This document shows, piece by piece, positions 9,902-47,295 of a stretch of 64,000 nucleotides of DNA. The notes below the pieces were generated by a model. That model searched no databases. It saw only the letters and a program-made list of their open reading frames with translations, and was not told the DNA's origin. Made by a program: the position numbers and the translations under genes. Positions within the stretch are counted from its first letter, which is position 1, and each line of letters begins with the position of its first letter. Origin of the DNA: a virus; IMG/VR virus record IMGVR_UViG_3300022744_000001, positions 194,022 to 258,021 of that record; one strand, given 5' to 3'.

Positions 9902-10738
9902 TCATTGCACGGCCGGAGTTGGCGCGCAAGTCAATTCCCACGGATACTGGGTTAGCGTGAATCCCGCTGCATTGCGGTGCCCGCCGCCGCCCATGGACTT
10001 GGCCAGAGCTGAGACGTCGAAGTCACCCTTTGAGCGAAGGCTATAGACGACTTTGCCATCTTCTCGTACGTGCCATCCCATGGCGAACAACTGCCCCTCG
10101 GCGAGTTCCCCCACGACCTCCGAGATGGCTGTGAAGGGGGCATTCACAATGGGTACCTCATGCCCAAGAAACTGAGTCTTGTAGGCGAGCCTCTTTGTGG
10201 ACTCGACGTAGTAGCGAAGCCACGCCATGCAGCCTGCACCACGAAGGGCTACTTGTTTGGGGCCCAGGTCATACGCTTCCTCGTACGCCTCGAATGTTTG
10301 CGGGAGCGATTGCAGGTAGGCGTTGACCTCTCTGCTGTTGGGTAACTGGAACTTCCAGAGGTCACGGTCTTCGGCGTACCTCACGAGCCAACACTCCTGG
10401 GTACCAAAGAAGTGCTCCCAGGTCAGAGTGGCGCCCGACTTGTCCATGTTGAACGTGATCTCGAGCTTGGGTACCTCGAGCCCTTGCAAATCGGCTTGAG
10501 CCGTCTTGTGGTGGTCAAGCAAAACGACACGGTTGGCCGCGTAGGCCATCGCCATCAACGTTTCGCGTGGGAAGGAGAAATCGACGATGTAGACGTCGCG
10601 ACCGGTGACATCGGGGGGAGCGTCACCGTATTGAACTGCTAGGTACTCCGCTTGGTCGCCAAGGGCTTTCCAAGCTGCCCAGGAAGAGGCCATTCCATCT
10701 GGGCATTTGGCATGATAGAGGACAAGAGCTTTCGTCAT
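9902..10738 (-). CDS. DHH/DHHA1 family phosphoesterase (NrnA-like nanoRNase/pAp phosphatase)
   Basis: It carries an N-terminal AKCPDG, the LLDHHK DHH motif, and a C-terminal GGGHRNAAGF DHHA1 motif. Confidence 0.7.
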   Translation of the reverse strand: MTKALVLYHAKCPDGMASSWAAWKALGDQAEYLAVQYGDAPPDVTGRDVYIVDFSFPRETLMAMAYAANRVVLLDHHKTAQADLQGLEVPKLEITFNMDKSGATLTWEHFFGTQECWLVRYAEDRDLWKFQLPNSREVNAYLQSLPQTFEAYEEAYDLGPKQVALRGAGCMAWLRYYVESTKRLAYKTQFLGHEVPIVNAPFTAISEVVGELAEGQLFAMGWHVREDGKVVYSLRSKGDFDVSALAKSMGGGGHRNAAGFTLTQYPWELTCAPTPAVQ

Positions 10739-12114: not shown

Positions 12115-12939
12115 ATGAGCATTCGTAGCGGTTTAGAGCTTGGGTTTCCCTACTCCCTTTCGAGATACACAGATGTTCCAGCTGCAAAATGGGAGTGGTG
12201 GCAGGACCGGTTTGCTCGAGGGGTCATGGAGGGGATCCATCCTACAACGGGGGTGCCTGCGCGTTGGTCTCTTGACCCGGACGAAACGTTGGGGCTCATC
12301 TTCTGGACCCGCATGCCTGAAAACCTGCTTCGATCGGCCGCAAACTTGGCCTGCTATCGGGTCAAGGTGCACATGACGGTGACGGGCTGGGAGGAAGTCG
12401 AGCACGGTGCCCCGGGGCTTGAGGAAGGCGCTCAGTGGTTGCGGCGGGCCGTGGAAACCTTCGGGGCCGAGAATGTCACGTGGCGGTTCTCCCCAGTGCC
12501 GCTGGTGCCCGACGTCCAGGAACGCTTTGGGCGCATCCTCGAGACTGCGGCGGGGGTCGGGCTCAAATCGGTCTACCTCTCGTTCTTACAAGCCAACGAC
12601 AAGGTGCCCGAGACCCGCGATCATTGGGAGCAACGTGAGCTGCTTCGGGCCTTGGGCGAGCGTGCGGCCCAACAAGGGGTGCAGGTCCGACTTTGCCAGG
12701 AAGCCCGCAAGGACGATTCCGGGCAGGTGTGGCGGTCGGCTGTGTGCGCGCCCCCAGAGGACTGGCAGCGCAAGCCTAGCTCGGAGGGGTGCGGGTGCGT
12801 GCACATGGTTGACCCCTTCACGGTCAACGAAGCGTGCGTGTTTAGGTGCGCCTACTGCTATACCGCTAACTCTGCCTCGTACCCGCACAAGCGGAACACG
12901 ACCAAGCACACCCGGCTACCGGTGTTGAACGGGGGATGA
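12115..12939 (+). CDS. DUF1848-like protein with C-terminal CxxxCxxC cysteine cluster
   Basis: RBS AAGGGGAAAG. The C-terminus has CVFRCAYC, a CxxxCxxC radical-SAM-like triad, placed at the C-terminal end rather than the usual N-terminal position. Confidence 0.45.
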   Translation: MSIRSGLELGFPYSLSRYTDVPAAKWEWWQDRFARGVMEGIHPTTGVPARWSLDPDETLGLIFWTRMPENLLRSAANLACYRVKVHMTVTGWEEVEHGAPGLEEGAQWLRRAVETFGAENVTWRFSPVPLVPDVQERFGRILETAAGVGLKSVYLSFLQANDKVPETRDHWEQRELLRALGERAAQQGVQVRLCQEARKDDSGQVWRSAVCAPPEDWQRKPSSEGCGCVHMVDPFTVNEACVFRCAYCYTANSASYPHKRNTTKHTRLPVLNGG

Positions 12940-22544: not shown

Positions 22545-22967
22545 ATGCTATTGAGGAACGAAGACGGCACGTACACTGCGGACGCGAGAGATGTCATCGT
22601 CATTCTCTTCCGACCCGACACGAAACGCTACCACGTGGCCTTCTACGAGTGGCACCCCCTCCCCGGAGAGCTGAGCCGAGAGAAGCCTCTCGAGATCCTG
22701 CGCTTGAAGTCCAAGATGCACCACACGCTGGGAGCCGAAACCCGCGAAGAAGCGCTCAAGCAGCTCACAGACATGCGCTTGAAGCTCAAAATCGAAGACC
22801 GAAACGTGAACCAGGCTCACGTCTACCCCTGGGACGGCGAGCAGGGGCACGTCTGGTTTGTGCGCCCTTGGGACGATTGCGCATTCCAGGACATCAACCC
22901 CGGAGAGCTGCACGTCGAGGCCCGGTGTAGCTCGGAGCATGCACCAGAAAGTCCTCGACTACATTAA
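22545..22967 (+). CDS. hypothetical protein
   Basis: 140 aa. Confidence 0.45.
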   Translation: MLLRNEDGTYTADARDVIVILFRPDTKRYHVAFYEWHPLPGELSREKPLEILRLKSKMHHTLGAETREEALKQLTDMRLKLKIEDRNVNQAHVYPWDGEQGHVWFVRPWDDCAFQDINPGELHVEARCSSEHAPESPRLH

Positions 22968-23886
22968 AGAGCTGACCAAGCGGGACTCCAAAACCCTGAG
23001 CCAGAAAGGCTTGAAGGGTGCTGAGGAGCTTGGAGAGCTGGCAAAGCTCATCCTCCCGTTCGAGAACGCCGCGGCGACCACGCACCGGTTCGTGACCCGC
23101 ATGAGGCTTCTGGAAGAGGCCGTGGACACCATCACGGTCATGCTGTCCATCGCTTACGAGCTGGGATTCTCCGATGACGAGATCGGCCAGATGATGGACC
23201 GGAAGACCACGAAGTGGGCAAACCGGCTCGCTCGAGAGGGCCGAATCAAATACCCGATCCCCTACGAAATCCATGTGACCGTCGCGGCCAGCCAGTCCGT
23301 AGAGACAGAGGAGGAGGTAAAACTGTTCAAGGGCTTCTGCGACGTTCTCGGGGTCAAGCCCATCCTCCTCGACCTGCACACGCGCGGCGGCCCCATCAAA
23401 GACCTCATGACATCCAGCGTCTTTCGTGGGGACAACAAGGGGGCCCTCGCGGAGGTCAAGCGCATCTCCGAACAGCTCACGAACTGCGGGTACAAGGTTC
23501 TGCGGGAGAAGATCGAGACCATCCCGTGGCACCCGGCCGCGCCCTCCAAGGAGGACGAAACCCCCACGATGCCCCCCGGCTGCTACTTCGAATGCCACCT
23601 CAACGTGGTGTGCACGGAGGACCGCCGCAAAGCACTGGAGATGCACGCCAACACGCACGGGGCCAAGATGAGCCGCAACGTGTTCAAGAAGATCTCCGGC
23701 GAGACCTTCACCATCATGGTGACATACCGCTCCTACGATGCTATTTACGAGGATTTCAGCGAGAAAGTTGAGAAGTTGAAAGCCAGTCTCGCAAAGTATG
23801 GCTTCGAATTCGAAAAGGAAATCGTGGAGTTCTCGCTTTACGACACGCGGGTGAGCCACGACGCCAAGTGGATGTTGGAGGGATGA
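22939..23886 (+). CDS. MazG-like nucleotide pyrophosphohydrolase domain protein with C-terminal extension
   Basis: The N-terminal all-alpha EELGELAKLIL...EEAVDTITVMLSIAYELG pattern matches the MazG family. The C-terminal 200 aa is unassigned. Confidence 0.5.
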   Translation: MHQKVLDYIKELTKRDSKTLSQKGLKGAEELGELAKLILPFENAAATTHRFVTRMRLLEEAVDTITVMLSIAYELGFSDDEIGQMMDRKTTKWANRLAREGRIKYPIPYEIHVTVAASQSVETEEEVKLFKGFCDVLGVKPILLDLHTRGGPIKDLMTSSVFRGDNKGALAEVKRISEQLTNCGYKVLREKIETIPWHPAAPSKEDETPTMPPGCYFECHLNVVCTEDRRKALEMHANTHGAKMSRNVFKKISGETFTIMVTYRSYDAIYEDFSEKVEKLKASLAKYGFEFEKEIVEFSLYDTRVSHDAKWMLEG

Positions 23887-24080
23887 TGTCAAAGCACTAC
23901 TTGCAACCGCCTCGTCGTTTCCCCCACCCTCCGAGCTGGATTGCTGTGTTTCTGTTCGCGGCGGCGTGGAACGCGCTCGTAGAGCAGAGCTGGTGGGGTG
24001 CGCTCTTCTGCCTGGCCCTGGCCTTGATCCCCATGTCCAAGATTCTGGGCGCCATTGACCGGCGCATTTTTCCAAGGTGA
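23883..24080 (+). CDS. small membrane protein
   Basis: ATGA overlap. One hydrophobic helix. Confidence 0.3.
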   Translation: MMSKHYLQPPRRFPHPPSWIAVFLFAAAWNALVEQSWWGALFCLALALIPMSKILGAIDRRIFPR

Positions 24081-24649
24081 AGTCAATGGAAGTTGTCAGT
24101 TTGTGTGAGGCGTTGGCCAAGCGGTGGATGAAGGGGCAGCGGCCGACCGTAAGCGGCCACCGGGAGGCATGGCGGCACCCGGAGGACGCGGTCCGGATTC
24201 TCGACTCCTGGCCGGTCCCCGTCAACACATGGAACCCCAACTACCTCCCGTACCTCAAGAGCGTCCTGTGGCTTCACGACGTCATCGAGGATGGTGAGCA
24301 CGAGGAGGGTCGGCCGATCACGGACCAAGACCTGCTCTCCGCGGGCATCCCGCACAACATCACCCGGGACGTCGTTCACATGAGCAAGCGCCCGTCTGAG
24401 AACAAGGACGCTTTCCTGACCCGTCTTTTCAAGGAAGGGTCCTGGGTCGCCAAGCTCTGCAAGTGCATAGACCGCAACTGCAACCTTCACGACGGCATCG
24501 CAGTGTTCAAAGACGACCGCTGGGCCCGGTACGTGGTCGAGACTGAACGGCACATCCTTCCCTTCGCCGACGCCAACTGCCCGTGGTTTGCAGCAGAGAT
24601 GCGCATTGTCATCGCTGCTAGACCCTTACAAGCGGAGAAAACGACATGA
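24077..24649 (+). CDS. HD-domain phosphohydrolase, SpoT/Mesh1-type small alarmone hydrolase-like
   Basis: LWLHDVIEDG matches HDxxED, and AKLCKCIDRNCNLHD resembles the RelA/SpoT KLADRLHNMR motif. Confidence 0.55.
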   Translation: MKSMEVVSLCEALAKRWMKGQRPTVSGHREAWRHPEDAVRILDSWPVPVNTWNPNYLPYLKSVLWLHDVIEDGEHEEGRPITDQDLLSAGIPHNITRDVVHMSKRPSENKDAFLTRLFKEGSWVAKLCKCIDRNCNLHDGIAVFKDDRWARYVVETERHILPFADANCPWFAAEMRIVIAARPLQAEKTT

Positions 24650-24793: not shown

Positions 24794-26020
24794 ATGGCAT
24801 ATGACCTGATCTGGAAAGCAGACGAAGCCCTCCCAAAACCCCAACCCGTTGCTGTCTGTGCGCGCGAACCTCTCCCCGATCGCACACGAAAAAGCATCTT
24901 CCTCGCAGGCCCGACGCCGCGAGACCAGAACACGCCGAGCTGGCGGCCCGAAGCTCTCCGCATCTTGGACAAGCTTGGGTATGACGGCTACGTCTTCATT
25001 CCCGAGGACCGTTCAGGTACCTTCTCCGGCGACTACACGGCACAGGTGGAGTGGGAGACGGCCGCGCTGAACGTGGCCGACATCATCGTCTTCTGGGTAC
25101 CTCGCGACATGAAGACCATGCCTGCCTTGACCACGAATGTCGAGTTCGGCATCTGGATGGATTCCGGCAAAGTCGTTTTGGGGGCGCCGGATTCAGCCGT
25201 GAAAAACACCTACCTCAAGTGGTGGGCGAGCAACCTGAAGGTACCTTTCTCCAACAGTCTCGAGACCACGCTGCAAGCGGCCATCGACGCCATTGGAGAC
25301 GGGGCTTCCCGCTGGGGTGGCGAAGCGCAAGTGCCGCTCCACATCTGGAAGCACCCGACCTTCCAAGGCTGGCTGCGAGCCCAGAAGGGGGCGGGCAACC
25401 GCCTCGATGGGGCCAAGGTCCTCTGGAGCTTCCGCGTAGGTCCAGAGCGCAAGAAGACGTTCGCTTGGGCCCTCCACGTGAACGTCTACGTGGCCTCCGA
25501 GGATCGAAACAAGACCAACGAGTTCGTGTTCGGTCGAGTCGATATCGCCTCTGTGGTCCTCTACCACCGAGACGACACGCACATGGACAAGGAGACCGAC
25601 GTGGACGTCATCCTGGTGCGTGAGTTCCGCTCCCCCGCACGTACGTCAGACGGGTTCATCGTCGAGCTGCCTGCGGGCAGCATCGAGAAGCTCGACCCCA
25701 AATCGGCCGCGCTGAAGGAGCTGGAGGAGGAGACCGGGGTCAAACTCGACCCGAACCGCCTTCGCCTGGTAGGTACCAAACAGGTGGCGGGTACCCTCTC
25801 TGCTCACACTTCGGTCGTTTACGCCGCCGCGATCGAATATGAGGAGTACGAAGAAATTCTCCGAACCATGGGAAAAGTCCGAGGGGTCGCTGAGGATACC
25901 GAGCGCACCACAATCACGGTAGACCGCCTCGACCATCTGCTCAGCGGAGCGAATGGTACCGAGGTAGATTGGGCGACCTTGGGGATGATCAGTGCCGCAG
26001 TTCTGACCCACAGTGATTGA
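24794..26020 (+). CDS. nucleoside 2-deoxyribosyltransferase-like domain fused to Nudix hydrolase
   Basis: The N-terminal half reads IFLAGP...TNVEFGIW, matching the NDT/SLOG fold. The C-terminal half carries the Nudix box ELPAGSIEKLDPKSAALKELEEETGV. Confidence 0.65.
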   Translation: MAYDLIWKADEALPKPQPVAVCAREPLPDRTRKSIFLAGPTPRDQNTPSWRPEALRILDKLGYDGYVFIPEDRSGTFSGDYTAQVEWETAALNVADIIVFWVPRDMKTMPALTTNVEFGIWMDSGKVVLGAPDSAVKNTYLKWWASNLKVPFSNSLETTLQAAIDAIGDGASRWGGEAQVPLHIWKHPTFQGWLRAQKGAGNRLDGAKVLWSFRVGPERKKTFAWALHVNVYVASEDRNKTNEFVFGRVDIASVVLYHRDDTHMDKETDVDVILVREFRSPARTSDGFIVELPAGSIEKLDPKSAALKELEEETGVKLDPNRLRLVGTKQVAGTLSAHTSVVYAAAIEYEEYEEILRTMGKVRGVAEDTERTTITVDRLDHLLSGANGTEVDWATLGMISAAVLTHSD

Positions 26021-26041: not shown

Positions 26042-26905
26042 ATGAACGTCTATGGAATCTCAGGGCTGAAGGGTCACGGGAAAGACTCTCTTGCAAAAGC
26101 CATTCAAGGCGAGAGCGGGGACTTTCGTATCACTCACTTCGCGTTCGAGTTGAAGCGCCTCGGTGGGGTCATTTTCGGCCTCACCGATGCTCAGATGCAC
26201 GATCAGCTGTTGAAGGAGTTACCTCTCCCTGAGCCCGTCCACATGGACGAGTTTCTCCCGGCGATGCGCGAGCAGACGGGGCTGGACATTCAACCCGCGG
26301 AGAAGGTTGCCAACACCCCTCGAGAGGTTTTGCAGTACCTGGGTACCGAGTACGTTCGTCGAGCCAGACAGTCTTACTGGGTCGATTGCGTGCTCAAGGA
26401 AATCATGGACGTGGGGGACTTCTTCCTCGTCCCTGACACTCGGTACCCGAACGAGGCCGACGCGCTCCGGTCCATCGGAGGCAAGGTCATCAAGGTCAAG
26501 CGCATCGACATCCCTGAGCACACGGACGGGCACTCGAGCGAGACCGAGATGGCGAAGATCGACCCGGACCTGCTCCTGGGCACGGTTACCGGCGGGTTCG
26601 GGCTCCAATCCAAAGTGGCCGCGTTGATTGCTCGGGGCCAGTTCGAGGAGGCCAAGAAGTACGACTACCGCCGAATCGAACGAGCTTTGGCGGAGTTCAG
26701 GGCCGGTGGCACAACCCGGGACGTGGCCCATACGCTCGAGCTGCACCTGGTGGACGCAGAATTCGTTCTCGATTACTACAAAATCAACTGCAAACGGTGT
26801 CTTGGGTATCGACGGTTCATTGACGGCGAGCTAGACCGAGGCCAAGTTGGCTTCGAAATCATGTCCTGTCAGGACTGCAAGGTGATTGACCCACGGCTTT
26901 CATGA
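26042..26905 (+). CDS. deoxynucleoside monophosphate kinase (T4 gp1-like) with C-terminal zinc ribbon
   Basis: ISGLKGHGKDSLAKAI matches the T4 dNMP kinase LSGVKRSGKDTTADFI. C-terminal CKRC...CQDC. Confidence 0.6.
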   Translation: MNVYGISGLKGHGKDSLAKAIQGESGDFRITHFAFELKRLGGVIFGLTDAQMHDQLLKELPLPEPVHMDEFLPAMREQTGLDIQPAEKVANTPREVLQYLGTEYVRRARQSYWVDCVLKEIMDVGDFFLVPDTRYPNEADALRSIGGKVIKVKRIDIPEHTDGHSSETEMAKIDPDLLLGTVTGGFGLQSKVAALIARGQFEEAKKYDYRRIERALAEFRAGGTTRDVAHTLELHLVDAEFVLDYYKINCKRCLGYRRFIDGELDRGQVGFEIMSCQDCKVIDPRLS

Positions 26906-30070: not shown

Positions 30071-30132
30071 CTACACCGATCCTCACCGCTACCAAAAAAC
30101 TGGTTAAGGCACTCATACCCCGGTGTACTGAG

Positions 30133-30173
30133 GACCATGGTCATCGTGACCATGGTTATCGGAACCATGGTCC
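30133..30173 (+). promoter_or_regulatory. three tandem 15-bp units each containing the palindrome (G)ACCATGGT(C); candidate operator array
   Basis: ACCATGGT occurs at 30134, 30149 and 30164 with exact 15-bp spacing, directly upstream of the NAD-operon regulator. Confidence 0.4.
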
Positions 30174-30943
30174 TCAACACCAGGGTAGTCATGTATCGTT
30201 ACAAATATCCGCGACCGTCGGTTGCTGTGGATCTCGTCACCTTTGGGTACGACGCGACCCAGGCAGAGATCAGTGTCCTACTCATCAAGCGCAAGCACGA
30301 TCCCTTCGAAGGGAAATGGGCCTTGCCTGGGGGGTTTGTCGAGGTTGGAACCGAGGACGATTTCTCGGGGTCAAAGCCTTCGAACTACGGGGAGTCGCTC
30401 GAGGACGCTGCGCGTCGTGAGCTGAAGGAGGAGACTGGGGCGGAGCCCGAGTACATCGAACAGCTCGGGACGTTCGGGGACCCCAATCGTGATCCTCGCG
30501 GGCGAGTCATCTCGGTCGCCTACCTCAGCCTCGTGCGCTCCAAGGACCTCACTGTCAAAGCCAGCTCGGATGCAGCCGAGGCGGTGTGGTGGCCTTTGAA
30601 GTCTGCCCTTCGCCAGAAGTTCGCCTTCGACCACAACACCATCCTGAATCAGGCCGTAACTCGACTTCACTCAAAGGTTCGGTACGCGCCAATCGGGTTC
30701 AACCTTCTCCCGCAGAAGTTCACCTTGCACGAGCTGCAAGAACTCTACGAGGCGCTTCTCTTGCGCCAGCTCGATAAGAGCAACTTCCGAAGGAAAGTGC
30801 TCTCCGTGGGGATTCTGGCCGAGGCCGGTCAACGCGTCCACGGGAAGCAAACCGTCCAACTCTACCGATTCGACAAGCGCGCCTACGACAAGGTCAGCGC
30901 TGCTGGCTTCAATTTCGAACCCAAGTTCGTGAAGGGGAAATGA
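30137..30943 (+). CDS. Nudix hydrolase domain + C-terminal winged-helix (NrtR-like ADP-ribose-responsive regulator)
   Basis: Nudix box GGFVEVGTEDDFSGSKPSNYGESLEDAARRELKEETG. C-terminal FTLHELQELYEALL...DKSNFRRKVL resembles the NrtR wHTH. The real start is probably the ATG at 30191. Confidence 0.6.
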   Translation: MVIVTMVIGTMVLNTRVVMYRYKYPRPSVAVDLVTFGYDATQAEISVLLIKRKHDPFEGKWALPGGFVEVGTEDDFSGSKPSNYGESLEDAARRELKEETGAEPEYIEQLGTFGDPNRDPRGRVISVAYLSLVRSKDLTVKASSDAAEAVWWPLKSALRQKFAFDHNTILNQAVTRLHSKVRYAPIGFNLLPQKFTLHELQELYEALLLRQLDKSNFRRKVLSVGILAEAGQRVHGKQTVQLYRFDKRAYDKVSAAGFNFEPKFVKGK

Positions 30944-32355
30944 TCATGCTTCGACCCAACCTCGCACTCAACACCGACTCCTACAAGCTCTCGCACCCGT
31001 GGCAATACCCTGACGGGCTCGAGTACATGCAGTCCTATTTCGAAAGCCGTGGTGGCCTCTTCGGAAAGACCATGAGCCTTGGCTACCAGGGGTTGGCCAA
31101 GACCAACCTGCTCGACCCGGTCACCAAGGACGACGTGGAGGAAGCCAAGGAGGTCGCGGAGGCCCATGGCGAACCTTTCGAGTACGGCGGCTGGATGCGC
31201 ATTGTGGACAAGTTCGAGGGCAAGCCCCCCATCCGCATCTTGGCCGTGCCCGAAGGTACTATGGTCCCGACGCACAACTTGCTGATGCGGGTGGAGTCCA
31301 TGGACAAGGAAACGGCGTGGCTCCCCGGGCACGTCGAGTCCATGTTGGTCCGCCTTTGGTACCCGCAGACGGTCGCGACTCTCTCGCACTACATCAAGCG
31401 GGACATTCTCGAGGCCCTGATCAAGTCGTCCAACGACCCCTGGGGGGAGATCCTCTTCAAGCTGCATGACTTCGGGGCTCGAGGGTGCAGCTCGCTCGAG
31501 ACGGCGGGTATCGGCGGTATGGCGCACCTGGTCAATTTCCAGGGCACCGACACCATCGAGGCTCTTCGCTACGTCCGGAAATACTACGGCGAGTCGATGG
31601 CGGGGTTCTCCATCCCCGCGGCGGAGCACTCGACCATCACGAGCTGGGGCCGGGAGAACGAACTCCTCGCCTACCGGAACATGGTCAAGCAGTTCGCGAA
31701 GCCCGGCAAGTTCGTGGCGTGTGTCTCGGACAGCTACGACATCTACAACGCGGTTCGTCTCTGGGGCAGTGAACTCCGCGAAGAGGTCAAGGCCAGCGGC
31801 GGCACCCTGGTCATTCGTCCTGACTCCGGCATCCCCGTCGAGGTGGTCATGAAGTGCCTCCGCATCCTGGAAGACCAGGTGGGCATGACCAAGAACATGA
31901 AGGGGTACAAGGTCCTCCCGTCCTACTTCCGCCTGATCCAGGGTGACGGGGTCAACCGCGACTCCATCCGCGAAATCCTCGCCGAGATGCTCGCGAACGG
32001 CTACTCGGCGAGCAACATCGCCTTCGGCATGGGTGGCGGCCTCCTGCAACAGGTCAACCGCGACACCCAGAAGTACGCCTACAAGTGCTCGCAGGTCATC
32101 ATCAACGGGCAGCCCCGTCGCGTCTTCAAAGACCCGGTCACGGACCAGGGCAAGAAGTCGAAGGCAGGCAACTTGGACATCGTGTTCGAGAACGGGCAGT
32201 TCAAGACCATCGAACTCGAGCCCGGCACCTCTCTCAGCCGCAACACGGCACTCAAGCCCATCTACGAAATGGGCAAACTCTTGGTAGATGAAAAGTTCTC
32301 CGACGTGCGGAAGCGTGCTGACAGCGACCTCGTCGAAGGCTACGGAAGGGCATGA
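30940..32355 (+). CDS. nadV: nicotinamide phosphoribosyltransferase (NadV/Nampt)
   Basis: LALNTDSYKLSHPWQYPDG...YFESRGG matches the NAMPT N-terminus. 471 aa, ATGA-coupled to its neighbours. Confidence 0.85.
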   Translation: MIMLRPNLALNTDSYKLSHPWQYPDGLEYMQSYFESRGGLFGKTMSLGYQGLAKTNLLDPVTKDDVEEAKEVAEAHGEPFEYGGWMRIVDKFEGKPPIRILAVPEGTMVPTHNLLMRVESMDKETAWLPGHVESMLVRLWYPQTVATLSHYIKRDILEALIKSSNDPWGEILFKLHDFGARGCSSLETAGIGGMAHLVNFQGTDTIEALRYVRKYYGESMAGFSIPAAEHSTITSWGRENELLAYRNMVKQFAKPGKFVACVSDSYDIYNAVRLWGSELREEVKASGGTLVIRPDSGIPVEVVMKCLRILEDQVGMTKNMKGYKVLPSYFRLIQGDGVNRDSIREILAEMLANGYSASNIAFGMGGGLLQQVNRDTQKYAYKCSQVIINGQPRRVFKDPVTDQGKKSKAGNLDIVFENGQFKTIELEPGTSLSRNTALKPIYEMGKLLVDEKFSDVRKRADSDLVEGYGRA

Positions 32356-33449
32356 CCATGATCACGAATCAACCAGCTGCTGTTTTGCTCAACCACGCGC
32401 CGTTGCGGGTTGCCATCGCGGCTTCGGGGGCCGGAGCAGGACTCCAGAAAACCCTCTGGGACGTTCCCGGCATCTCCGCGGTCTTGGTCGAGGCTTCCTT
32501 CCCCTATGCGATGGAGGCGACTGACCAGTTCCTGCGGTTCAAGCCTGACCGGTATTGCTCGGCTTGCACTGCCGTCGAGATGGCCATGGAGTGCTACTAC
32601 CGGGCATTCCAGTACAACGGCCCCCGGGCCATCGGGGTTGGGCTCAGTGCCTCGGTGGCATCCCTAAAAGCCCACCGGGGCGAGCACCGGGTCTTTGCGG
32701 CGTCCTTCTCGGACAAGGGGTGCCGGGTCTACGAACGAGTGCTGGAGAAGACCAACGAACCGGCAACCCTCGCTCGTGTGCTTGACGGGGCGGTGGCCGA
32801 CGCCATGGGCCTTCTGGCGCTCCTGGAGGCCGTAGGAGCGGCGATGGACAACGCCCCCGAGGCAACCGACTATGACGGGGCGGCCCTCGCTCACGAGGCG
32901 TTCTGGGCCCGTCCTGTGTTCACCAAGACCGGGCAGCGGGTGACCGAGGCTGAGGCCGAGGTGGAAGCGATCTTCCCCGGGGCCTTCAACCCGCCCCATC
33001 ACGGGCACTTTGGGATGGCCCACAACTTCCAAGGGTATACTCGGATCAGCCCCACCTTTCATGTCACGGCGGAGACGCCCCACAAGCCCCCGCTTTCCGT
33101 GGCAGAGATGCTGCAACGAGCCAAGATGCTTGAGGGGCACCACCGGATGTTCACCCGGAACGACCCCCTGTACGTGGACAAGGCGGCCAAGTTCCCCGGG
33201 CGTCCGATCCTCGTCGGGTCGGATGCGCTCGAGCGCCTGCTCGACCCCAAGTGGGGGCCAACCCCAGAAGAGCTGGGCTCCACATTCGAGGAGCATGGGA
33301 CGGTTTTCTACGTCCCTGAAACCCGGGTCGTGAACGGCCGCGAAGTGAAGCTCGAGGACCTGACCCTACCCAAAGGCTTGAGGGTGATTCGACTCCCTGG
33401 CCGTTGGGATGTCAGCTCCTCCGAGCTTCGCGCTACTTCCGCCGCTTAG
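32352..33449 (+). CDS. CinA-C/PncC-like domain fused to nicotinamide/nicotinate mononucleotide adenylyltransferase (NMNAT)
   Basis: The C-terminal GAFNPPHHGH...VSSSELRA matches NadD motifs. The N-terminal LWDVPGISAVLVEASFPYAME...ACTAVEMAMEC...GVGLSASVAS aligns with the CinA C-terminal (NMN deamidase) fold, but the ESCTGG motif is replaced by ASGAGAG. Confidence 0.65.
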   Translation: MTMITNQPAAVLLNHAPLRVAIAASGAGAGLQKTLWDVPGISAVLVEASFPYAMEATDQFLRFKPDRYCSACTAVEMAMECYYRAFQYNGPRAIGVGLSASVASLKAHRGEHRVFAASFSDKGCRVYERVLEKTNEPATLARVLDGAVADAMGLLALLEAVGAAMDNAPEATDYDGAALAHEAFWARPVFTKTGQRVTEAEAEVEAIFPGAFNPPHHGHFGMAHNFQGYTRISPTFHVTAETPHKPPLSVAEMLQRAKMLEGHHRMFTRNDPLYVDKAAKFPGRPILVGSDALERLLDPKWGPTPEELGSTFEEHGTVFYVPETRVVNGREVKLEDLTLPKGLRVIRLPGRWDVSSSELRATSAA

Positions 33450-36110: not shown

Positions 36111-36744
36111 GGCCGGTGGGAGGGGCACTCGAACCCGGGCCTTGGTCCTGGCCGGGAATGCGCCGAATGCCCATGATCATCATCCTCCCCGCTGCCTCGT
36201 GCTGGGAGTGGCTGTCCACCTGCAAAACGACATTGACCACGGTGCGACCCAGCCGCATCCAGGCTTGCTCGAGCGCCTTAACCCCCTCGTTGACGTCGTG
36301 GACCAATGAGTGCATCTCCTCGGAGATTTCGCAGTTCGAATCGTGCAGCAGCTCCACAAACAAGGACGCGATATCGATCAACAGGTCGTGTCGCTCCTCG
36401 GGGGAAGCCCCGCTGAACTTGCGCACGCTTTCGAGCAGGTCCGGGGACGTGAACAGGTCGTCCTTGTGGATGCGCCCACAAGCCCCGCATACCTCACTGG
36501 GAGGGGCCCCTTTACTCCGCCAGATGCTGGCCGCAGATGTCACCACCTCCGAAACGGTCTCCTCCCCACGACGGGAGACAACCACTGTGACGACGGGGGC
36601 CCAACCAGTTTTGGACTGCGCGAGCTTGATGTCCTTGATCGTGCCCTCAATCCGCAATCCGCCCGCATCTGTTTCTACTTCTGCCCCAATCGCGAGATCT
36701 TGTTCTGCCATGTTTTCTCCGTGACAATCGTACACCGGAATCAA
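36103..36744 (-). CDS. hypothetical protein
   Basis: 213 aa. Confidence 0.4.
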   Translation of the reverse strand: MIPVYDCHGENMAEQDLAIGAEVETDAGGLRIEGTIKDIKLAQSKTGWAPVVTVVVSRRGEETVSEVVTSAASIWRSKGAPPSEVCGACGRIHKDDLFTSPDLLESVRKFSGASPEERHDLLIDIASLFVELLHDSNCEISEEMHSLVHDVNEGVKALEQAWMRLGRTVVNVVLQVDSHSQHEAAGRMMIMGIRRIPGQDQGPGSSAPPTGLN

Positions 36745-37445
36745 CGGCGTCTCGTTTTCTTGCGCTTCGACGTTTCCGCTTCCCTTGCGGCCGTGACCAG
36801 ACGAGCTTGGTCTTGACGAGCTTGGTCTTGCTCTTCCGCCTCTTTGGCCGCGACGATGGCGGCCCGGTTCATGTGAGCGCGGTCCATCGCCTCGTCGCCC
36901 GTGATTCGCTCATAGGGGACCTTGTTGTCCCGAAGAGCCCGGACACGTTCGATCTCGTCCTCCGAATGAACCGTTCCGCCCGCGTTCAAGTCGATGTACC
37001 AGGAGTACACGTCGTTGATCGTCTTGAGTTCGTTCACGTGCCACCGGAAGCGGCACTGCATGATGTCGAACCCGTCCGTGTACTCCCGATGGTAGTGGCC
37101 GAACGCTTTGATCTCGTTGCTCAGGTAGCCAATGACTGCATCAATACGCTGCTTGCCGTCCACGAGCACGTACCAGCACTTTGGGTCGTTTTTGTCCACG
37201 AACCCCTGCCACGTGGGGCAGTTCGTGTAGATGTCCTTGCCCGACTTGCCGCCGCTCAGGATGTACTCGACGAACCGAGTTTTCTGCGCCTCTGTCCAGA
37301 CGTTCCCTCGCTGGAAGTTGGGGTTGACGTCCAGGCCGTAGTCCATCACCTGGCTGTAGTAGTATTTCGCAAGGTAGTTCCACCCCACGTCAACGGCGTA
37401 CAGCCCGGCACTGGGGGTCATCTGGGGGATATCACGATAGCGCAT
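36741..37445 (-). CDS. DUF262 (ParB-like nuclease domain, DGQQR motif) protein
   Basis: NFQRGNVWTEAQKTRFVEYIL...LVDGKQRIDAV. A 15-bp tandem repeat (QDQAR x2) sits in the C-terminal coding region. Confidence 0.6.
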   Translation of the reverse strand: MRYRDIPQMTPSAGLYAVDVGWNYLAKYYYSQVMDYGLDVNPNFQRGNVWTEAQKTRFVEYILSGGKSGKDIYTNCPTWQGFVDKNDPKCWYVLVDGKQRIDAVIGYLSNEIKAFGHYHREYTDGFDIMQCRFRWHVNELKTINDVYSWYIDLNAGGTVHSEDEIERVRALRDNKVPYERITGDEAMDRAHMNRAAIVAAKEAEEQDQARQDQARLVTAAREAETSKRKKTRRR

Positions 37446-40891: not shown

Positions 40892-42322
40892 TCAATCCTC
40901 GTCGTCTTCGTCCTCATCTTCGTCGTCGTCTTCATCCTCGTCTTCGTCGTCGTCCTCTTCGTCGTCCGAGTTATCCTCGTCGTCGTAGTCGTTGCCTTCG
41001 TCCTCGTCGCCCTCTTCGTCGGCGTCCTCGTCGCCTTCGGCTTCCTCTTCCTTGTCCTCCTCGATTTCGTTGTACTTGAAGAAATCGTAGACCTGGGAAA
41101 GGGTCATGGGCTGATTGAACTCGGCTTCGTCGCCCTCGGAGAGGCGGGCGTAAACTTCCTGCGCCCTCTCCACGCTCAGCGGTCCGATGTAAACCTGCTT
41201 CGACAAACGACCCGTGCGAAGCAGCGCGTCGTCGATCTCCTGCATCTTGGCGTTTGTGGTGCAGATGATACGAAGGTTCAAGGCGCTACCCAAGATACCA
41301 TCGCTTGCATTGAGTAGGGCGGAGATGGCTGCCAGGTTGGCCTCATCGTTGTCCACCACTGGGCCCACCGTTTTGAGAAGTGCGTTTTGCGCATCGATGA
41401 GGATGGTCGCCACTTCAGGGGTCAACATTTGCTTGGCAAGAAGGCCGCCGATGAGGTCGAACAGCTTCTGGAACTCCTTGACCAACGAGGATTCCTTTTT
41501 GCGAGGAACCAGCGCTCGGTCGGCATCCTCGATGAGAAGCACGATGGGCTTTTCGACCCCAATCATGCTGCGAGCACGGATGAGGGTAGGTACGAGGTTC
41601 GGACCGGCCAAGTGCTCGACCATGCCCGCCGGGATCAGAACGAACACGGCGTCGTAGACCTCGTGCAAGAGGCCCCGGATGAAGAACGTTTTGCCGGTGC
41701 CCGGTTCGCCCTGAATGATGACCAAACGGCCGATGGGGGTGGCGCGTTGCAGGTCGTCCACGATGAAGTCGAAAGCATCGACCACATCGGCTTCGTAGTT
41801 GTCACGCTCGATGGGAACGCCCGCAAGGCCCACTTCACCGATCTCGATGCCGTTGGCCCCCTGGGCAAGGGAGTAGATGGGCTGGCGAACGAACTCGGGC
41901 AACAGATGGTCCCCGAGACGCTTGTTGACGTCCTCGAACGTCTTCCGGTTCGTGGAGACCACGCGGATGTCGTATTTGTTATCCAGACCGGTGTGGATTT
42001 TGACGGCGCCCTCTGGCCAGAAAAGCCAGGTTTCACTCGTGCCACGCCCGAAGATGGGCACATCTGCGAACGGAGAGCGGGCTCCCGTGATAGATGCGAT
42101 GGCCTCGAAGAGCTTCTCCTGCCCCTGCTCGTCGGACTCCTCGATCAGCACTCCACGGCACCCACCCGAGAACACGGTGAGGTTGTTTGCGACAGCATGG
42201 TCAACGAGCATCGTCGCCGCAGGCCCATACTCCTCCAGCACCAGTTTCCCTGGAGCCCACCAATCCAACTTGGGAGGCTCTTTCGGCGGCTCGCGTCGGC
42301 TCTTGTCGTTCTTGGTTGCCAT
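40892..42322 (-). CDS. classic AAA-family ATPase with poly-acidic C-terminal tail
   Basis: Walker A IIQGEPGTGKTF, Walker B VLLIEDAD, sensor-1 CTTN and SRH ALLRTGRL are all present. About 70 C-terminal residues are almost entirely D/E. Start taken at MATKNDK (42322). Confidence 0.7.
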   Translation of the reverse strand: MATKNDKSRREPPKEPPKLDWWAPGKLVLEEYGPAATMLVDHAVANNLTVFSGGCRGVLIEESDEQGQEKLFEAIASITGARSPFADVPIFGRGTSETWLFWPEGAVKIHTGLDNKYDIRVVSTNRKTFEDVNKRLGDHLLPEFVRQPIYSLAQGANGIEIGEVGLAGVPIERDNYEADVVDAFDFIVDDLQRATPIGRLVIIQGEPGTGKTFFIRGLLHEVYDAVFVLIPAGMVEHLAGPNLVPTLIRARSMIGVEKPIVLLIEDADRALVPRKKESSLVKEFQKLFDLIGGLLAKQMLTPEVATILIDAQNALLKTVGPVVDNDEANLAAISALLNASDGILGSALNLRIICTTNAKMQEIDDALLRTGRLSKQVYIGPLSVERAQEVYARLSEGDEAEFNQPMTLSQVYDFFKYNEIEEDKEEEAEGDEDADEEGDEDEGNDYDDEDNSDDEEDDDEDEDEDDDEDEDEDDED

Positions 42323-42504
42323 GATTTTCTCTTCTTTTCGTCTCCGGAGGCGTCGAGCCTCCCGCCTTCCCGTACACCAATCACATGCTGAACTTGGGCT
42401 TTTGCCCGCATTCGCCTCAAAAAAGCCACGAAACGGCAGCGGAGCCGGTAGGTTTGCGCTGGGAAATCCCCGAGCTGAGCTAAACCGCCCTTGGCTAAGT
42501 TGAG

Positions 42505-42735
42505 CTATTTGCTGGGTTTCGGTTCTGAATTTGGGAAAATGGAAGCAATGAGGCAGCCCAAGTGATAGGGCACTTCCCGGTCTTCCTCTTTGGTGGCCGC
42601 CGCGAAGGGCAGAACTACGCCCCGGTCTCCATGGCGTATCGGTTCTTGGCACGCAAAACAGGGTTTTGACGGGGTGGACACTTGCTGCCCGGTTTCACAC
42701 ACCCCTGCCTTCCACGGCGGCCCGAACCACTTCAT
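42505..42735 (-). CDS. possible small Cys/His protein in long divergent intergenic region
   Basis: 76 aa ORF (CFACQ...HLGC). Weak support. Confidence 0.2.
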   Translation of the reverse strand: MKWFGPPWKAGVCETGQQVSTPSKPCFACQEPIRHGDRGVVLPFAAATKEEDREVPYHLGCLIASIFPNSEPKPSK

Positions 42736-43804: not shown

Positions 43805-46042
43805 CTACTCAGCGGCTTCGGCGAAGTTCCCCGGACCAACAAGACCAACCAAGTGCTGACGCGCGACCCGGTACGTGTTCTTCGCGGTCTGGATCTCGGC
43901 CCGAATGGCCGCGCTCTCGAGGTTGCGATCAATGGTGTTGATGAGGTCGTCGGGGGTGATTTCAATGCCGTTCTCCCGCAACATGCGCTCGAGCTTGGCC
44001 TGACGCTCGAGCGAGAACTTGGAGCGGTCAAACTTCGTCCCCTCCTCCTGCAAGAACTTCACGACCTCTTGAGCCTTCTCTGGCCTGCGGTTCACGAAGT
44101 TGCGCATGTTCTTGCGCCAGAGGTCGTCGGCCATCTTGCGCACGGTGTCGCCCACGGCCCCCTCGAGTTTGGTTGAAGCATCGGTCCATGCCACGTCCGA
44201 GAAATTCGGGGACAGGGGCAAGTACGACAAGGAGCGGCGGAGCAGCTTCACACGGTCCACATGAGCCAGCTCGCCCACCAGAAGGACCTTGGCGAAGCGG
44301 CGGATGATGGGCATGGACATGCGCTCGGGATGGTTCGTCGCGCCCCACACGGAGATACCCGAGTAGGAGAGCACGCCGTCCATGAGAATCTGGAACTCGG
44401 TTGTGAGGTTCGTACCCCCGAACGCTTCGTGTCCCTGATTGCCGTTGAGCACCGTGTCGATCTCGTCGATGGAGATGAACGCTTGGCGCTCGGTCTCCTT
44501 GTGGAGCTGCAAGGCAGCCTCGAACAGGCGCTTGGGGTTCTTCTCGGCCTCACCCTTCCAGCAGGTGAGGAAGTCGGAGCCCTGGGCGAAGATGGTGAGC
44601 GCATTCCTCTCGCTGCTGATGGCTCGGAGAGCCTCGGTCTTGCCACACCCCATGGGGCCGACCAAGAGCACGTTGCTCTTGTCGGTCTTGCCGCTCGGGC
44701 TCGTGGCCCGGAAAAGGTCGGCGTACATGGACGAGTCCTTCGCCTGCTCGACCATCTCCCGAACTTCGTCGAAGCCCGACCCCACCAGGTCCCCGAGCGA
44801 GACCTTGGGCTTGAGGCCCGGGATGACCTCGAGCGCTCCAGGGGCCTCCCCCAGGAAGGAGTTGCCCGCCCCCACCTTGCACACGTAGAACGAGTTCTCG
44901 TCCCGGTGGATCTTGTACCACTGGGCCTTGCGTGCGAGCACGAACTTCACGATTTCCTGCCCGCTCTTCTCAGTGAGGAGTAGGCCCGAGATGGTCGAAA
45001 TCGTCTCGTTGCGGAAGTCGATCTCCATCTGCTCTTCGGGACTCTTGAGGCCAACCTTGTCCCTCTCCCGAACGTTGCGGGGGTCAAGCTCGCTGACCGA
45101 ACGGAGAGCCTCTTTGAACTCCGACTCATTCATGAGGCGGCGCGGGGGCTTGCCTCCAGTCACGCGGCGGATCTTCTCGGCCGCCGTGTGAATCTTGGCC
45201 TCGATTTTCTCCGCCCCTTCCCACATGGAGGTGAGGTTTTCGGAAAGGAAGTCGATGATTTCCCCGGGCTCCTTCACGAACCCGCCGAAGAGGCCACCAC
45301 AGAGGGCGTCGGCCAGGATCGTGGCCTTGCGCTGGGTGTAAACGCTGATCTCGTCCGGCTTCTTGCCGTCCTGGATTTCACCATGCGCGTCCGCGTTCTC
45401 GTAGATGGAGATGGCCAGGTCCGTACGAACGGGGTCACCGTGAATTTTGATGCCTTCCACGCTGTGCCGGTGTCGAAGCATCTTGTGGTACATCTCGAGG
45501 TGGAAAACCACGCCTCGAGCAATAGACACCACCAGGTTTTGCAGGACAGCGGCGTTCTCAACCCCTTCCACGAAGCGCTGCAAAGGCTCCTGGTTCATCT
45601 GCACCAGAAGCACGAACGCTTGCAGCTCCTCTCGGGTCGTCGGGGGTTTGACGTCGCCGAAGAGCATGAGGTTCATGGGTTGAATCGCATGCACCGTGTC
45701 GCGGAGCGCGTGAAATCCGTTCTGAATTGCCCGGGAGATGCTGAGGATGAGCGCCACGAAGTTGCCTGCGCCCATCGTGTGCTTGAACTGCTGAAACCAG
45801 TCCTCTTGCTGGTTCATGTCGAAGGGGTTCTTCGTTCTGAGCGAGTTCTTGGCCTCTGCGACCATCGCGCTGTAGGTGTCCCCGATCTCCTCGACGCGCT
45901 CATCGAATTCTTCGCACAACTTGTCGAGGAAAGCCCCGGTTTCACGAAGGCCGTCGTAGTCGAAGTCCAACACCAGGCCCACGAGATCCGTGAACTGGGC
46001 CGGAGTGATAGATACTTTGGAAACCATTTTGTCGATGTACAT
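43805..46042 (-). CDS. large classic AAA-family ATPase with about 480 aa unique N-terminal region
   Basis: Walker A VLLVGPMGCGKTE, Walker B FISIDEIDTV and sensor-1 GATNHPERM are present. Start uncertain: the track's extreme end (46075) would be TTG; the first in-frame ATG is at 46042, with another at 46027. Confidence 0.65.
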   Translation of the reverse strand: MYIDKMVSKVSITPAQFTDLVGLVLDFDYDGLRETGAFLDKLCEEFDERVEEIGDTYSAMVAEAKNSLRTKNPFDMNQQEDWFQQFKHTMGAGNFVALILSISRAIQNGFHALRDTVHAIQPMNLMLFGDVKPPTTREELQAFVLLVQMNQEPLQRFVEGVENAAVLQNLVVSIARGVVFHLEMYHKMLRHRHSVEGIKIHGDPVRTDLAISIYENADAHGEIQDGKKPDEISVYTQRKATILADALCGGLFGGFVKEPGEIIDFLSENLTSMWEGAEKIEAKIHTAAEKIRRVTGGKPPRRLMNESEFKEALRSVSELDPRNVRERDKVGLKSPEEQMEIDFRNETISTISGLLLTEKSGQEIVKFVLARKAQWYKIHRDENSFYVCKVGAGNSFLGEAPGALEVIPGLKPKVSLGDLVGSGFDEVREMVEQAKDSSMYADLFRATSPSGKTDKSNVLLVGPMGCGKTEALRAISSERNALTIFAQGSDFLTCWKGEAEKNPKRLFEAALQLHKETERQAFISIDEIDTVLNGNQGHEAFGGTNLTTEFQILMDGVLSYSGISVWGATNHPERMSMPIIRRFAKVLLVGELAHVDRVKLLRRSLSYLPLSPNFSDVAWTDASTKLEGAVGDTVRKMADDLWRKNMRNFVNRRPEKAQEVVKFLQEEGTKFDRSKFSLERQAKLERMLRENGIEITPDDLINTIDRNLESAAIRAEIQTAKNTYRVARQHLVGLVGPGNFAEAAE

Positions 46043-46074
46043 GGCCAACCAGTACACCGGCAGGTGTAAAGGCA

Positions 46075-47295
46075 ATGCACATGGACCAGTTTGTTCGGCG
46101 AAAATTAACCGAGCTGAAACCCCACCCTAAGAACGACGCATTCTTCCATGACCTGCGCCTATCCCCTAAATACCCGCTTGTACGGGAACAGGTTTGCAGT
46201 GGCGAGATCCAAAACCCGCTCACTGTCCTGTCGGACGGCACGGTTGTATCGGGCCACCTTCACTATCTAGCCGCTCTTGAGCTTGAGGTAGAGGAAGCTC
46301 CCATTCAGCTTTACGAGGGGAACTGGAACGAGGTGCACGAGCTGGAGTTCTTGCTCCAAGCGAACGCCCAACTCGGGTACCTGGGGTTCGAACAGATAGC
46401 GATCGCGTACTCTCTCCTTTTGGGAGGGGCGATTGAGAAGCCCAAGGACGCCAGCAAAGGCGGGCGGCCGAAGAAGGGGGCTGCCCCATCTCCGGAACGG
46501 CGACAAAGCACCAAAGAGCGGGTAGCGCGGCTCCTGGGGGTTTCTGCGAAAACCGCAGAGCACTTGCACCTGATCTACCTGACGCCCGGGGTCCCTGCGG
46601 ACATTCACGACGCTGTTGAAAACCGAATGGTCCCCATCGCCCTCGCGGCGGATGCGGTGCAGTTCAGCATCCATGAGGCCCTTCGACGCAACCCTCACAC
46701 GAAATTCGTCGTGGTGGACCCGATTGACGTGCGTACGTACATCGAGACGCCCCCAAACAAACGACGCACGAAAATGGTGGACCTGCTCAAGGGCAAGCGT
46801 CCCCGCCCCCTCCCTCCCGTCATGCTCGAGGGGAAAGAAGTTGCTGACTACCACAAGCGGGTCTTTTCTTCGGTCCCGCCCCCCTTCCATCCAAAGCAGA
46901 GCGTGCAGAGCATGATTCGAGACGGGGTCCACTGGGATGATCTCGAGGTGCCAGACAACGACATCCCGCTTCACGAGGCCATTGGGCGCATTCGGGCTCG
47001 ACTCAGCAAGGCTTTCGAGGCCCCCGTCCTGGTACACGAGGACAAGGTCGAGGAGGCCCTAAACTCGCTCCTTTTGGAAGTTGCGCGGCTCATGAAGTCG
47101 CACCACGGCAAGGAAGTCTCGGTCCGCATCGGGAGCGCTCCAGTAGCCCCCAAACCGCGCCCCAAAGCCACCGTGAAACCCAAGGCAGAGTCAAAGCCCC
47201 CTTCGAAGCCCCCGGCCCCCACCGTCTTCGCTACCGAGGTCGAGTTCATCGTCTCCTTGCTCGGGCTGGAGACCGTCCAGGCACTAGGGCGCTAG
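46075..47295 (+). CDS. ParB N-terminal-domain-like protein
   Basis: LKPHPKNDAFFHDL...LTVLSDGTVVSGHLHYLAA resembles the ParB/Srx fold with its GxxR-type motif. Confidence 0.5.
   Translation: MHMDQFVRRKLTELKPHPKNDAFFHDLRLSPKYPLVREQVCSGEIQNPLTVLSDGTVVSGHLHYLAALELEVEEAPIQLYEGNWNEVHELEFLLQANAQLGYLGFEQIAIAYSLLLGGAIEKPKDASKGGRPKKGAAPSPERRQSTKERVARLLGVSAKTAEHLHLIYLTPGVPADIHDAVENRMVPIALAADAVQFSIHEALRRNPHTKFVVVDPIDVRTYIETPPNKRRTKMVDLLKGKRPRPLPPVMLEGKEVADYHKRVFSSVPPPFHPKQSVQSMIRDGVHWDDLEVPDNDIPLHEAIGRIRARLSKAFEAPVLVHEDKVEEALNSLLLEVARLMKSHHGKEVSVRIGSAPVAPKPRPKATVKPKAESKPPSKPPAPTVFATEVEFIVSLLGLETVQALGR

Follow-up and report, generated by a model that had tools for sequence, protein, structure and literature searches.

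NadM-Nudix is a fusion of a nicotinamide mononucleotide (NMN) adenylyltransferase (NMNAT) with a Nudix pyrophosphatase that acts on ADP-ribose (ADPR). Another bifunctional enzyme, CinA, joins an ADPR pyrophosphatase of the COG1058 family to the NMN deamidase PncC and recycles the products of non-redox NAD use (PMC4246079). Here we describe a fusion of a different make, encoded by an open reading frame (ORF) at positions 24794–26020 (+ strand) of a 64,000-nucleotide stretch of viral DNA (positions 194,022 to 258,021 of IMG/VR record IMGVR_UViG_3300022744_000001; hereafter the window). Its 408-amino-acid (aa) product is a true fusion of a nucleoside deoxyribosyltransferase (NDT)-like N-glycosidase domain with a Nudix enzyme of the ADPR-pyrophosphatase type, both with predicted activities. 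Of the roles considered for the fusion, the recycling of what NAD breakdown leaves behind is the most likely, ahead of an attack on immune signals, because most members of its family are chromosomal genes of Patescibacteria that lie in NAD-salvage operons.

The general plan of the protein resembles that of both known enzymes. Like CinA (e.g., that of Thermus thermophilus), it would join ADPR-pyrophosphatase activity to the processing of a pyridine mononucleotide by a second domain, with the same proposed logic and the same NAD-operon context. However, the two share no homology in either half: a Nudix ADPRase stands here in place of COG1058/MocF and an NDT-type N-glycosidase in place of the amidase, and the product proposed from its predicted activity is nicotinamide instead of nicotinic acid mononucleotide (NaMN). 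NadM-Nudix and NatV of phage KVP40, which occurs together with NadV/NAMPT in phages (NARP2), likewise join a Nudix ADPRase to a domain that uses NMN, but their adenylyltransferase partner builds NAD, whereas the N-glycosidase fold found here would break a nucleotide, and an NMNAT-like function would reside in a separate ORF (32352–33449). Clades of phage Nudix proteins are described in PMC9503650.

Each half of the fusion belongs to a known superfamily, and the architecture is visible in databases and has received one passing mention in the literature. This concerns gp334 of Bacillus phage G (AEO93593.1), a true homologue that shows 45% identity across 93% of the query, has the same architecture and is annotated as a 'NUDIX hydrolase'; its DrHyd domain was labelled as 'predicted to function as ARC' (PMC9503650). 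In the part of that paper available, the remark covers the DrHyd domain only, predicts a cyclase activity and makes no mention of NAD-salvage operons. Our literature searches turned up no study of the fusion and no other mention of it, nor any of its link to such operons.

Results

Architecture of the fusion protein

The ORF is intact, its ATG is preceded 5 bases upstream by a Shine-Dalgarno-like GGGAGGG, and its GC content at third codon positions (0.75) is similar to that of the neighboring genes. Two Pfam families matched above their curated cutoffs, PF15891 (Nuc_deoxyri_tr2) at residues 33–133 (E 3.9e-14) and PF00293 (NUDIX) at residues 269–351 (E 2.4e-7), bearing out the two-domain NDT-fold and Nudix architecture that a preliminary description of this DNA had claimed. 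The match in PHROGs was to a generic Nudix family only, NCBIfam gave sub-threshold matches to generic Nudix models only, and none of the PADLOC models matched at E ≤ 0.01; neither PADLOC nor NCBIfam contains a dedicated curated model of the fusion. An AlphaFold2 model, for which 67 homologues served as input, had a mean pLDDT of 92.9 and a pTM of 0.88. The ORF list, Pfam, the AlphaFold2 model and full-length homologues all support treating the ORF as one unit, which divides into an N-terminal Rossmannoid domain of the NDT/DNPH1/MilB (DrHyd) type (aa ~20–170; 24851–25303, + strand), a helical linker with the β-sheet N-subdomain of the ADPRase half (aa ~175–262; 25316–25579, + strand; from Foldseek and conservation), and the Nudix catalytic fold (aa ~263–404; 25580–26005, + strand; from PDB sequence matches and conservation), which includes the E277-F-R279 motif and E370.

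The N-terminal domain retains putative catalytic residues of an N-glycosidase

The Rossmannoid three-layer α/β fold of nucleoside deoxyribosyltransferases is present in the N-terminal domain (NDT-like/DrHyd superfamily, PF15891). The catalytic nucleophile of this superfamily is a Glu in the loop or helix after the fourth strand (NDT E98, Rcl E93, MilB E103), and a second carboxylate, which precedes by eight residues a conserved Asp at the start of the following strand, is contributed by NDT D72, Rcl D69 and MilB D78. In an alignment of 258 family members, on which all conservation figures given here are based, the putative catalytic residues of both halves were 95–100% conserved. E117 (codon 25142–25144, + strand, checked), in the motif TTNxE[WF]G, is the predicted nucleophile and was conserved in 99% of members. 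When the profile of the domain was aligned with hhalign, E117 fell on E93 of rat Rcl and on E98 of L. leichmannii NDT, both in low-probability alignments. The two reference sequences were verified against the PDB, and these single-sequence comparisons served for locating motifs only, not as evidence of homology; the weak placements were consistent with the fold match. The apparently catalytic NDT-type domain of the preliminary description thus keeps the Glu on which the proposal hinged.

E88 (codon 25055–25057, + strand; motif QVEWE), conserved in 99% of members, is predicted to be the general acid or ribose-binding carboxylate at the position of Rcl D69 and NDT D72. It is likely the second catalytic carboxylate, since it has the same 8-residue spacing to the invariant D96 (100%) as Rcl D69 to D77 and NDT D72 to D80, a correspondence obtained by ungapped extension of the weak hhalign match. 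The strand-1 loop F36-L-A-G-P-T-P-R43 (24899–24922, + strand), delineated from conservation and comparison with MilB, has Phe at the position where Tyr specifies deoxyribose and ends in a candidate phosphate-binding Arg (F36 92%, with Tyr at ~0%; G39 99%; P40 98%; R43 96%). The strand-1 Tyr that excludes the 2′-OH (NDT Y7, Rcl Y13) is replaced by F36, so the deoxyribose-specific signature is absent. In MilB, the F17Y exchange turns a CMP-specific enzyme into one specific for dCMP, and the phosphate is contacted by the nearby R23 (PMC4081090); we infer that F36 and R43 correspond to these residues. Also conserved were W87 (100%), W50 (99%), R51 and R104 (98% each), and T113, T114 and N115 (96–98%), and the pocket is rich in Trp (W50, W87, W101, W/F118).

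With its Glu nucleophile kept and Phe at the Tyr position, as in the CMP-specific MilB, the domain seems to be an N-glycosidase that is active and acts on a ribonucleoside 5′-phosphate. The same Phe disfavors an unwanted deoxynucleoside monophosphate (dNMP) as substrate, an option raised in the preliminary description, and its assignment of the domain to SLOG did not hold, as we found no LOG-type fold with a PGGxGTxxE motif here. Identity to the described enzymes of this type is low (<22% to the MilB and BlsM CMP N-glycosidases, the dNMP N-glycosidase DNPH1 (Rcl) and the PF15891 structure 4mcj). The domain differs from MilB, BlsM and DNPH1 in its Trp-rich pocket, in its fusion to a Nudix enzyme and in an NAD context instead of antibiotic or dNMP contexts.

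The Nudix half resembles ADP-sugar pyrophosphatases

In a Foldseek comparison with the PDB, ~205–224 columns of the C-terminal part spanned nearly the whole chains of the Klebsiella and Escherichia coli ADPR pyrophosphatase NudF, the GDP-mannose hydrolase YffH and human NUDT5 (E 1e-11 to 1e-9, target TM 0.66–0.74), and by sequence the Nudix fold matched PDB entries of ADPR pyrophosphatases and NUDT5 (E 5e-5). Both the Nudix fold and the N-terminal β-sheet subdomain that mark the NudF/NUDT5/YffH class are present. By predicted fold class, the 'Nudix domain' is a complete two-subdomain ADP-sugar pyrophosphatase of residues ~180–404, and since this match fills that range, no uncharacterized middle region is left between the two enzymes.

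Residues E277-F278-R279, which align to the QYR of ADPRases, fit the phosphate-binding motif [EQ][FY]R and were 99/89/99% conserved, as were E370 (99%) and Q330 (98%); from its position, E370 may be the loop catalytic base of NUDT5-type enzymes. The Nudix box GSIEKLDPKSAALKELEEETGVK (aa 295–317; 25676–25744, + strand), delimited by conservation, is divergent. Its G295 (99%), E309 (99%), E312 (95%) and E313 (99%) are conserved, but it departs from the canonical GX5EX7REUXEEXGU in having a loop of another length and variable residues in place of the REUXEE Arg and the Gx5E Glu. Thus the two-subdomain fold, the [EQ][FY]R motif, the Nudix glutamates and a Glu at the loop-base position are common to the fusion and to NudF, NUDT5 and YffH, while identity to these is 13–21%, the conserved Arg and first Glu of the box are missing, and the fusion has an additional N-terminal enzyme domain of 170 aa and a distinctive conserved cluster in the N-subdomain (E236/R238/K240/N242/E243/R248). 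The pyrophosphate-cleaving half claimed earlier is of the ADPR type by its fold class, with a predicted activity.

The family is widespread in Patescibacteria and huge phages

Approximately 2000 full-length homologues were found at ≥49% identity, and the identical protein is located on a 448-kb contig. When the representatives of clusters at 50% identity were searched exhaustively, 491 clusters matched at E ≤ 1e-30, nearly all of 370–410 aa and matching end to end, and the protein of the window is an ordinary member of this family. A scan of GTDB species genomes confirmed the fusion in at least 576 genomes. The hosts are mostly Patescibacteria (candidate phyla radiation, CPR), namely Saccharibacteria, Parcubacteria groups, Falkowbacteria, Moranbacteria and others, and the remaining genomes come from Myxococcota, Planctomycetota, Actinomycetota (Streptomyces, Glycomyces) and a few others. 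At least 146 IMG/VR contigs, many of them 300–650 kb long, also carry it.

The NDT-like domain was also seen without the Nudix half. Stand-alone versions (~150–200 aa, 45–55% identical to the N-terminal domain of the fusion) occur at 20 IMG/VR loci among L148–L171, and the neighborhoods of these 20 viral loci were too diverse to inform on function. At L164 (9443–10447), an NDT-like domain follows a Metallophos_2 phosphoesterase domain (Pfam) in one fused protein, and a 330-aa ORF at L163, which falls in the same cluster, is maybe similar. Such a protein would be a second, non-homologous pairing of a phosphoesterase with an N-glycosidase.

The gene lies in NAD-salvage operons of Patescibacteria

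NrtR, a Nudix protein with a winged helix, is an ADPR-responsive repressor of NAD genes. When all ORFs within 10 kb of 160 homologues were clustered without prior assumptions and the largest clusters were annotated, NrtR was among them, together with PncB, a PncA-like nicotinamidase, NadE (sometimes fused to NMNAT), ADP-ribosylglycohydrolase (ARH), NAD kinase and NadD. At least one of these NAD genes was found at 23 of the 80 bacterial loci, at least two at 20 and at least three at 13, and at 14 of the 80 an NAD gene was directly adjacent to and co-directional with the fusion gene; NAD families made up 5.8% of all ORFs in the bacterial loci. Representative gene orders are NadE-NrtR-x-PncA-PncB-fusion-x-NadD (L064), ARH-fusion-PncA-PncB (L057) and NrtR-fusion-NadE-PncB (L060), and in a 372-kb phage (L137) the order is NrtR-ARH-fusion. 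Members of the family thus belong to NrtR-regulated NAD-salvage operons in Patescibacteria, which bears out the earlier claim of a link to NAD-derived molecules. This clustering was not seen in the other phyla examined: outside the CPR (Myxococcota, Planctomycetota and others), contexts were singletons with no conserved neighbors, as judged from crude ORF calling that was poor on several high-GC loci.

A further block recurs near the fusion gene, both in genomes of Patescibacteria and in contigs that carry a viral label (9–19 loci per family). It consists of NrtR, an isochorismatase-like protein, a 250-aa protein, a PP2C-like phosphatase and a ~580-aa protein (L134, 13572–18564; L152, 13964–19401; L037, 21–4411). 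Neither the 250-aa nor the ~580-aa protein belongs to a Pfam or NCBIfam family, and the block may be another NrtR-linked module.

The window carries an NAD module downstream of the fusion gene

The window looks like part of a huge phage, with phrog_2426, thymidylate synthase, endolysin, Dam, AlkB and ClpX among its genes. Downstream of the fusion gene, Pfam and NCBIfam identified a syntenic NAD module (30137–33449, + strand) that consists of an NrtR-like gene with Nudix and winged-helix domains (30137–30943), a clear NAMPT (30940–32355; E 7.6e-57) and a 365-aa ORF (32352–33449) that overlaps the NAMPT stop codon. The fusion gene lies 1.5–4 kb upstream of the NrtR-like Nudix gene and NAMPT in the window and at the related loci L009, L010 and L011. 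The 365-aa ORF has no PHROG match and sub-threshold matches only, of a segment at its N-terminus to the portion of CinA that is PncC (NMN deamidase) and of residues ~201–261 to NadD-type Na(M)N adenylyltransferases; an ORF of the same length with the same weak cytidylyltransferase-like match follows NAMPT at L011. To judge from these matches, it may be an unusual NMNAT partner that completes a NARP2-like module; the fusion gene itself is not a defined component of NARP2.

Directly before the NrtR-like gene, and overlapping its mechanical start, lies an array of five ACCNNGGT palindromes with a spacing of 15–17 bp (30117–30186). Three of the five are exact copies of ACCATGGT, the only ones in the 64 kb, and two boxes 15 bp apart are expected 0.00 times by chance. 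The NrtR-like gene of L011 is preceded by a similar array (ACCCAGGT, ACCTAGGT, ACCTTGGT, ACCCGGGT) at 15 bp. We regard the ACCNNGGT array as a candidate operator for autoregulation of the NrtR-like/NAMPT operon; translation of the NrtR-like ORF probably begins in truth at the Met of MYRYKYPRP (~30191).

The immediate neighbors of the fusion gene are an HD phosphohydrolase upstream (24077–24649, + strand; phrog_990, and 7p1y at E 1e-7) and a dNMP kinase downstream (26042–26905, + strand; PF21448, phrog_139). Further upstream is a 342-aa MazG-like ORF (22858–23886, + strand) that aligns along its full length with phrog_1247, 'MazG-like pyrophosphatase' (E 1e-34), and has no Pfam match; its residues 135–339 also match PADLOC 'AbiEi' strongly (E 1e-33). 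The preliminary description had argued from the HD and dNMP-kinase neighbors to a small-molecule counter-defense or modified-nucleotide island. We searched for the window proteins at 171 homologue loci with tblastn and found the MazG-like protein at none of the other loci, HD at three, the dNMP kinase at ten and NAMPT at eight, all in phages. Among the 80 viral loci the counts were 0 (MazG-like), 1 (HD) and 8 (dNMP kinase), and the dNMP kinase was near none of the 80 genome loci. From this, we concluded that the HD and dNMP-kinase neighbors are clade-specific synteny and not conserved partners, and the argument from context found no support: we rejected the modified-nucleotide island as a conserved context, since its genes are confined to the closest phage relatives.

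In related huge phages, an adenylosuccinate-synthetase (PurA/PurZ-like) gene occurs downstream of the NAMPT module at a distance of a few kb, as at L009 (15026–16363), L010 (14908–16239) and L097 (16765–18144), and its neighbor cluster covers 7 loci. The idea of a Z-genome was dropped for the window, as there was no PurZ-type adenylosuccinate synthetase among the window ORFs scanned; NARP3 (PnuC and NadR) was set aside as unrelated. Elsewhere in the window we noted a DHH phosphoesterase (9902–10738, – strand; phrog_4771), a DUF1848 protein (12115–12939, + strand), a GmrSD_N-like protein (36741–37445, – strand), two large AAA+ proteins (40892–42652 and 43805–46075, both – strand), an R2K-clade ATP-grasp protein (49813–50892, + strand) and a ClpX-like ATPase (58453–59733).

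Discussion

There is, in our estimate, about an even chance that the fusion works with two activities in the network that recycles pyridine nucleotides (NAD), handling the by-products of NAD consumption; for such recycling with ADPR as the Nudix substrate, to judge from fold class and operon context, the chance is slightly better than even. ADPR is produced by NADases, ADP-ribosyltransferases, sirtuins and ADP-ribosylglycohydrolases. The Nudix half would split it into AMP and ribose-5-phosphate, a substrate choice that fits because the adjacent ADP-ribosylglycohydrolases release ADPR and NrtR senses it. In the N-terminal domain, E117 as nucleophile and E88 as acid would cleave the base from a ribonucleoside 5′-phosphate. 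Our tentative choice for this nucleotide is NMN, the second by-product that arises when NAD is used in non-redox reactions, which would yield nicotinamide and ribose-5-phosphate. We favor NMN because its conversion to nicotinamide (Nam) is the one step of the cycle from NMN through Nam, nicotinic acid (NA), NaMN and then nicotinic acid adenine dinucleotide (NaAD) to NAD that is absent from these operons, and because nicotinamide is the substrate of the PncA encoded next door. CD38, assigned by Iyer et al. to the DrHyd superfamily's ARC clade (PMC9503650), has NMN glycohydrolase and NMN base-exchange activities (PMC11903787). In Patescibacteria, the released nicotinamide would feed the neighboring PncA-PncB-NadD-NadE route, and in phages the fusion would accompany the NrtR-like/NAMPT/NMNAT-like module for rebuilding NAD, clearing ADPR and supplying ribose-5-phosphate for phosphoribosyl pyrophosphate (PRPP).

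Several observations weigh against NAD by-product recycling as proposed here. An NMN glycohydrolase would oppose NAMPT in the same phage in a futile cycle, and E88 puts an invariant carboxylate at the general-acid position, a feature found more typically where a purine or pyrimidine is the leaving group than where nicotinamide is. As many as 57 of the 80 bacterial loci have no NAD neighbor within 10 kb, including all those examined from Myxococcota, Planctomycetota and Actinomycetota, and NAMPT lies within 10 kb at only 5 of the 80 viral loci. The hhalign matches to Rcl and NDT are of low probability by themselves; with a divergent Nudix box, ADPR specificity is deduced from fold class and context only; and our literature search found no biochemical or genetic study of any family member.

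The E88 carboxylate, which would suit a purine leaving group, finds a more natural place if the two halves act consecutively on ADPR, with the Nudix half yielding AMP and ribose-5-phosphate and the N-terminal domain, as an AMP/NMP nucleosidase, releasing adenine and a second ribose-5-phosphate, so that the nucleotide ribose is channelled into PRPP or central metabolism. Successive steps are common in fused domains, the ribo-type Phe36 and an Arg-rich pocket suit a nucleoside monophosphate, and no conflict with the phage NAMPT would arise. We nevertheless consider this unlikely, as it leaves the tight adjacency of PncA and PncB, which need nicotinamide or nicotinate, unexplained; the two ADPRase fusions known from NAD metabolism, CinA and NadM-Nudix, use a partner that processes NMN and not one that degrades AMP, and the destruction of AMP is costly. 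Less probable again is an NAD+ glycohydrolase or ADP-ribosyl-cyclase that converts NAD+ or NADP+ to nicotinamide and ADPR or cyclic ADPR (cADPR), with the Nudix half then destroying the ADPR. This follows the published 'ARC' label of phage G gp334, but we detected no specific structural or sequence similarity of the N-terminal domain to CD38 or Aplysia cyclase, and the fold ranking favors NDT/MilB-type N-glycosidases.

Counter-defense, as suggested in the preliminary description, would use the same two chemistries on immune signals: NAD-derived molecules such as cADPR isomers, His-ADPR and N-glycosidically cyclized ADPR would be dismantled by N-glycosidic and then pyrophosphate cleavage. Both chemistries are apparently active by fold and conserved residues, the fusion gene is common in huge phages, and phage SLOG, Macro, NADAR and Nudix domains have been proposed for such use (PMC9503650). 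We found nothing specific in favor of signal degradation, however, as there was no PADLOC match, no association with anti-defense genes was seen, and the NAD-salvage context of the Patescibacteria genes, which form most of the family, points to housekeeping that phages took over alongside an NAMPT module, and away from an enzyme dedicated to gcADPR, His-ADPR or cyclic-nucleotide signals. The linkages of gcADPR are, moreover, O-glycosidic, and we know of no NDT-type enzyme that cleaves these. We hold signal destruction to be very improbable, and equally so the version for the phage protein in which the NDT-like domain opens cADPR or N7-cADPR-type molecules, or removes adenine from gcADPR or His-ADPR, before the Nudix half splits the pyrophosphate. 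Least probable of all would be a sanitizer of the nucleotide pool that serves DNA metabolism by removing a deoxynucleotide, canonical or damaged, and joins a DNPH1-like dNMP N-hydrolase to a MutT-like (d)NTP pyrophosphatase. It would work with the neighboring dNMP kinase, MazG-like and HD proteins, but these are confined to the closest relatives, and the bacterial neighbors are NAD genes instead of DNA-precursor genes. Phe occupies, in 92% of members, the position of the Tyr that confers deoxyribose specificity (on this position, see PMC4081090), and the Nudix half belongs to the two-subdomain NDP-sugar/ADPR class and not to the MutT class.

If the fusion does recycle NAD by-products, it would be a third non-homologous pairing of ADPR disposal with the processing of a pyridine mononucleotide, after CinA and NadM-Nudix, and a family shared by hundreds of Patescibacteria genomes and many huge phages would gain a function. 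The classical pyridine nucleotide cycle includes an NMN glycohydrolase step for which, to our knowledge, no bacterial gene has been named. The N-terminal domain is a possible, though uncertain, candidate for the gene of this long-orphan step, a reading more probable than a role in destroying TIR-derived signals. Should the N-terminal domain instead prove to be an NADase or a signal hydrolase, the family would bear directly on TIR/Thoeris conflicts, and a phage fusion that destroys TIR-derived signals would be a new enzymatic class of anti-Thoeris/anti-TIR protein, recruited from a bacterial NAD-recycling enzyme. NAMPT-based NAD rebuilding (NARP2) defeats NAD-depleting defenses, and, on the recycling reading, the fusion would add an accessory enzyme to the NAD-rebuilding toolkit with which phages counter NAD-depleting immunity.

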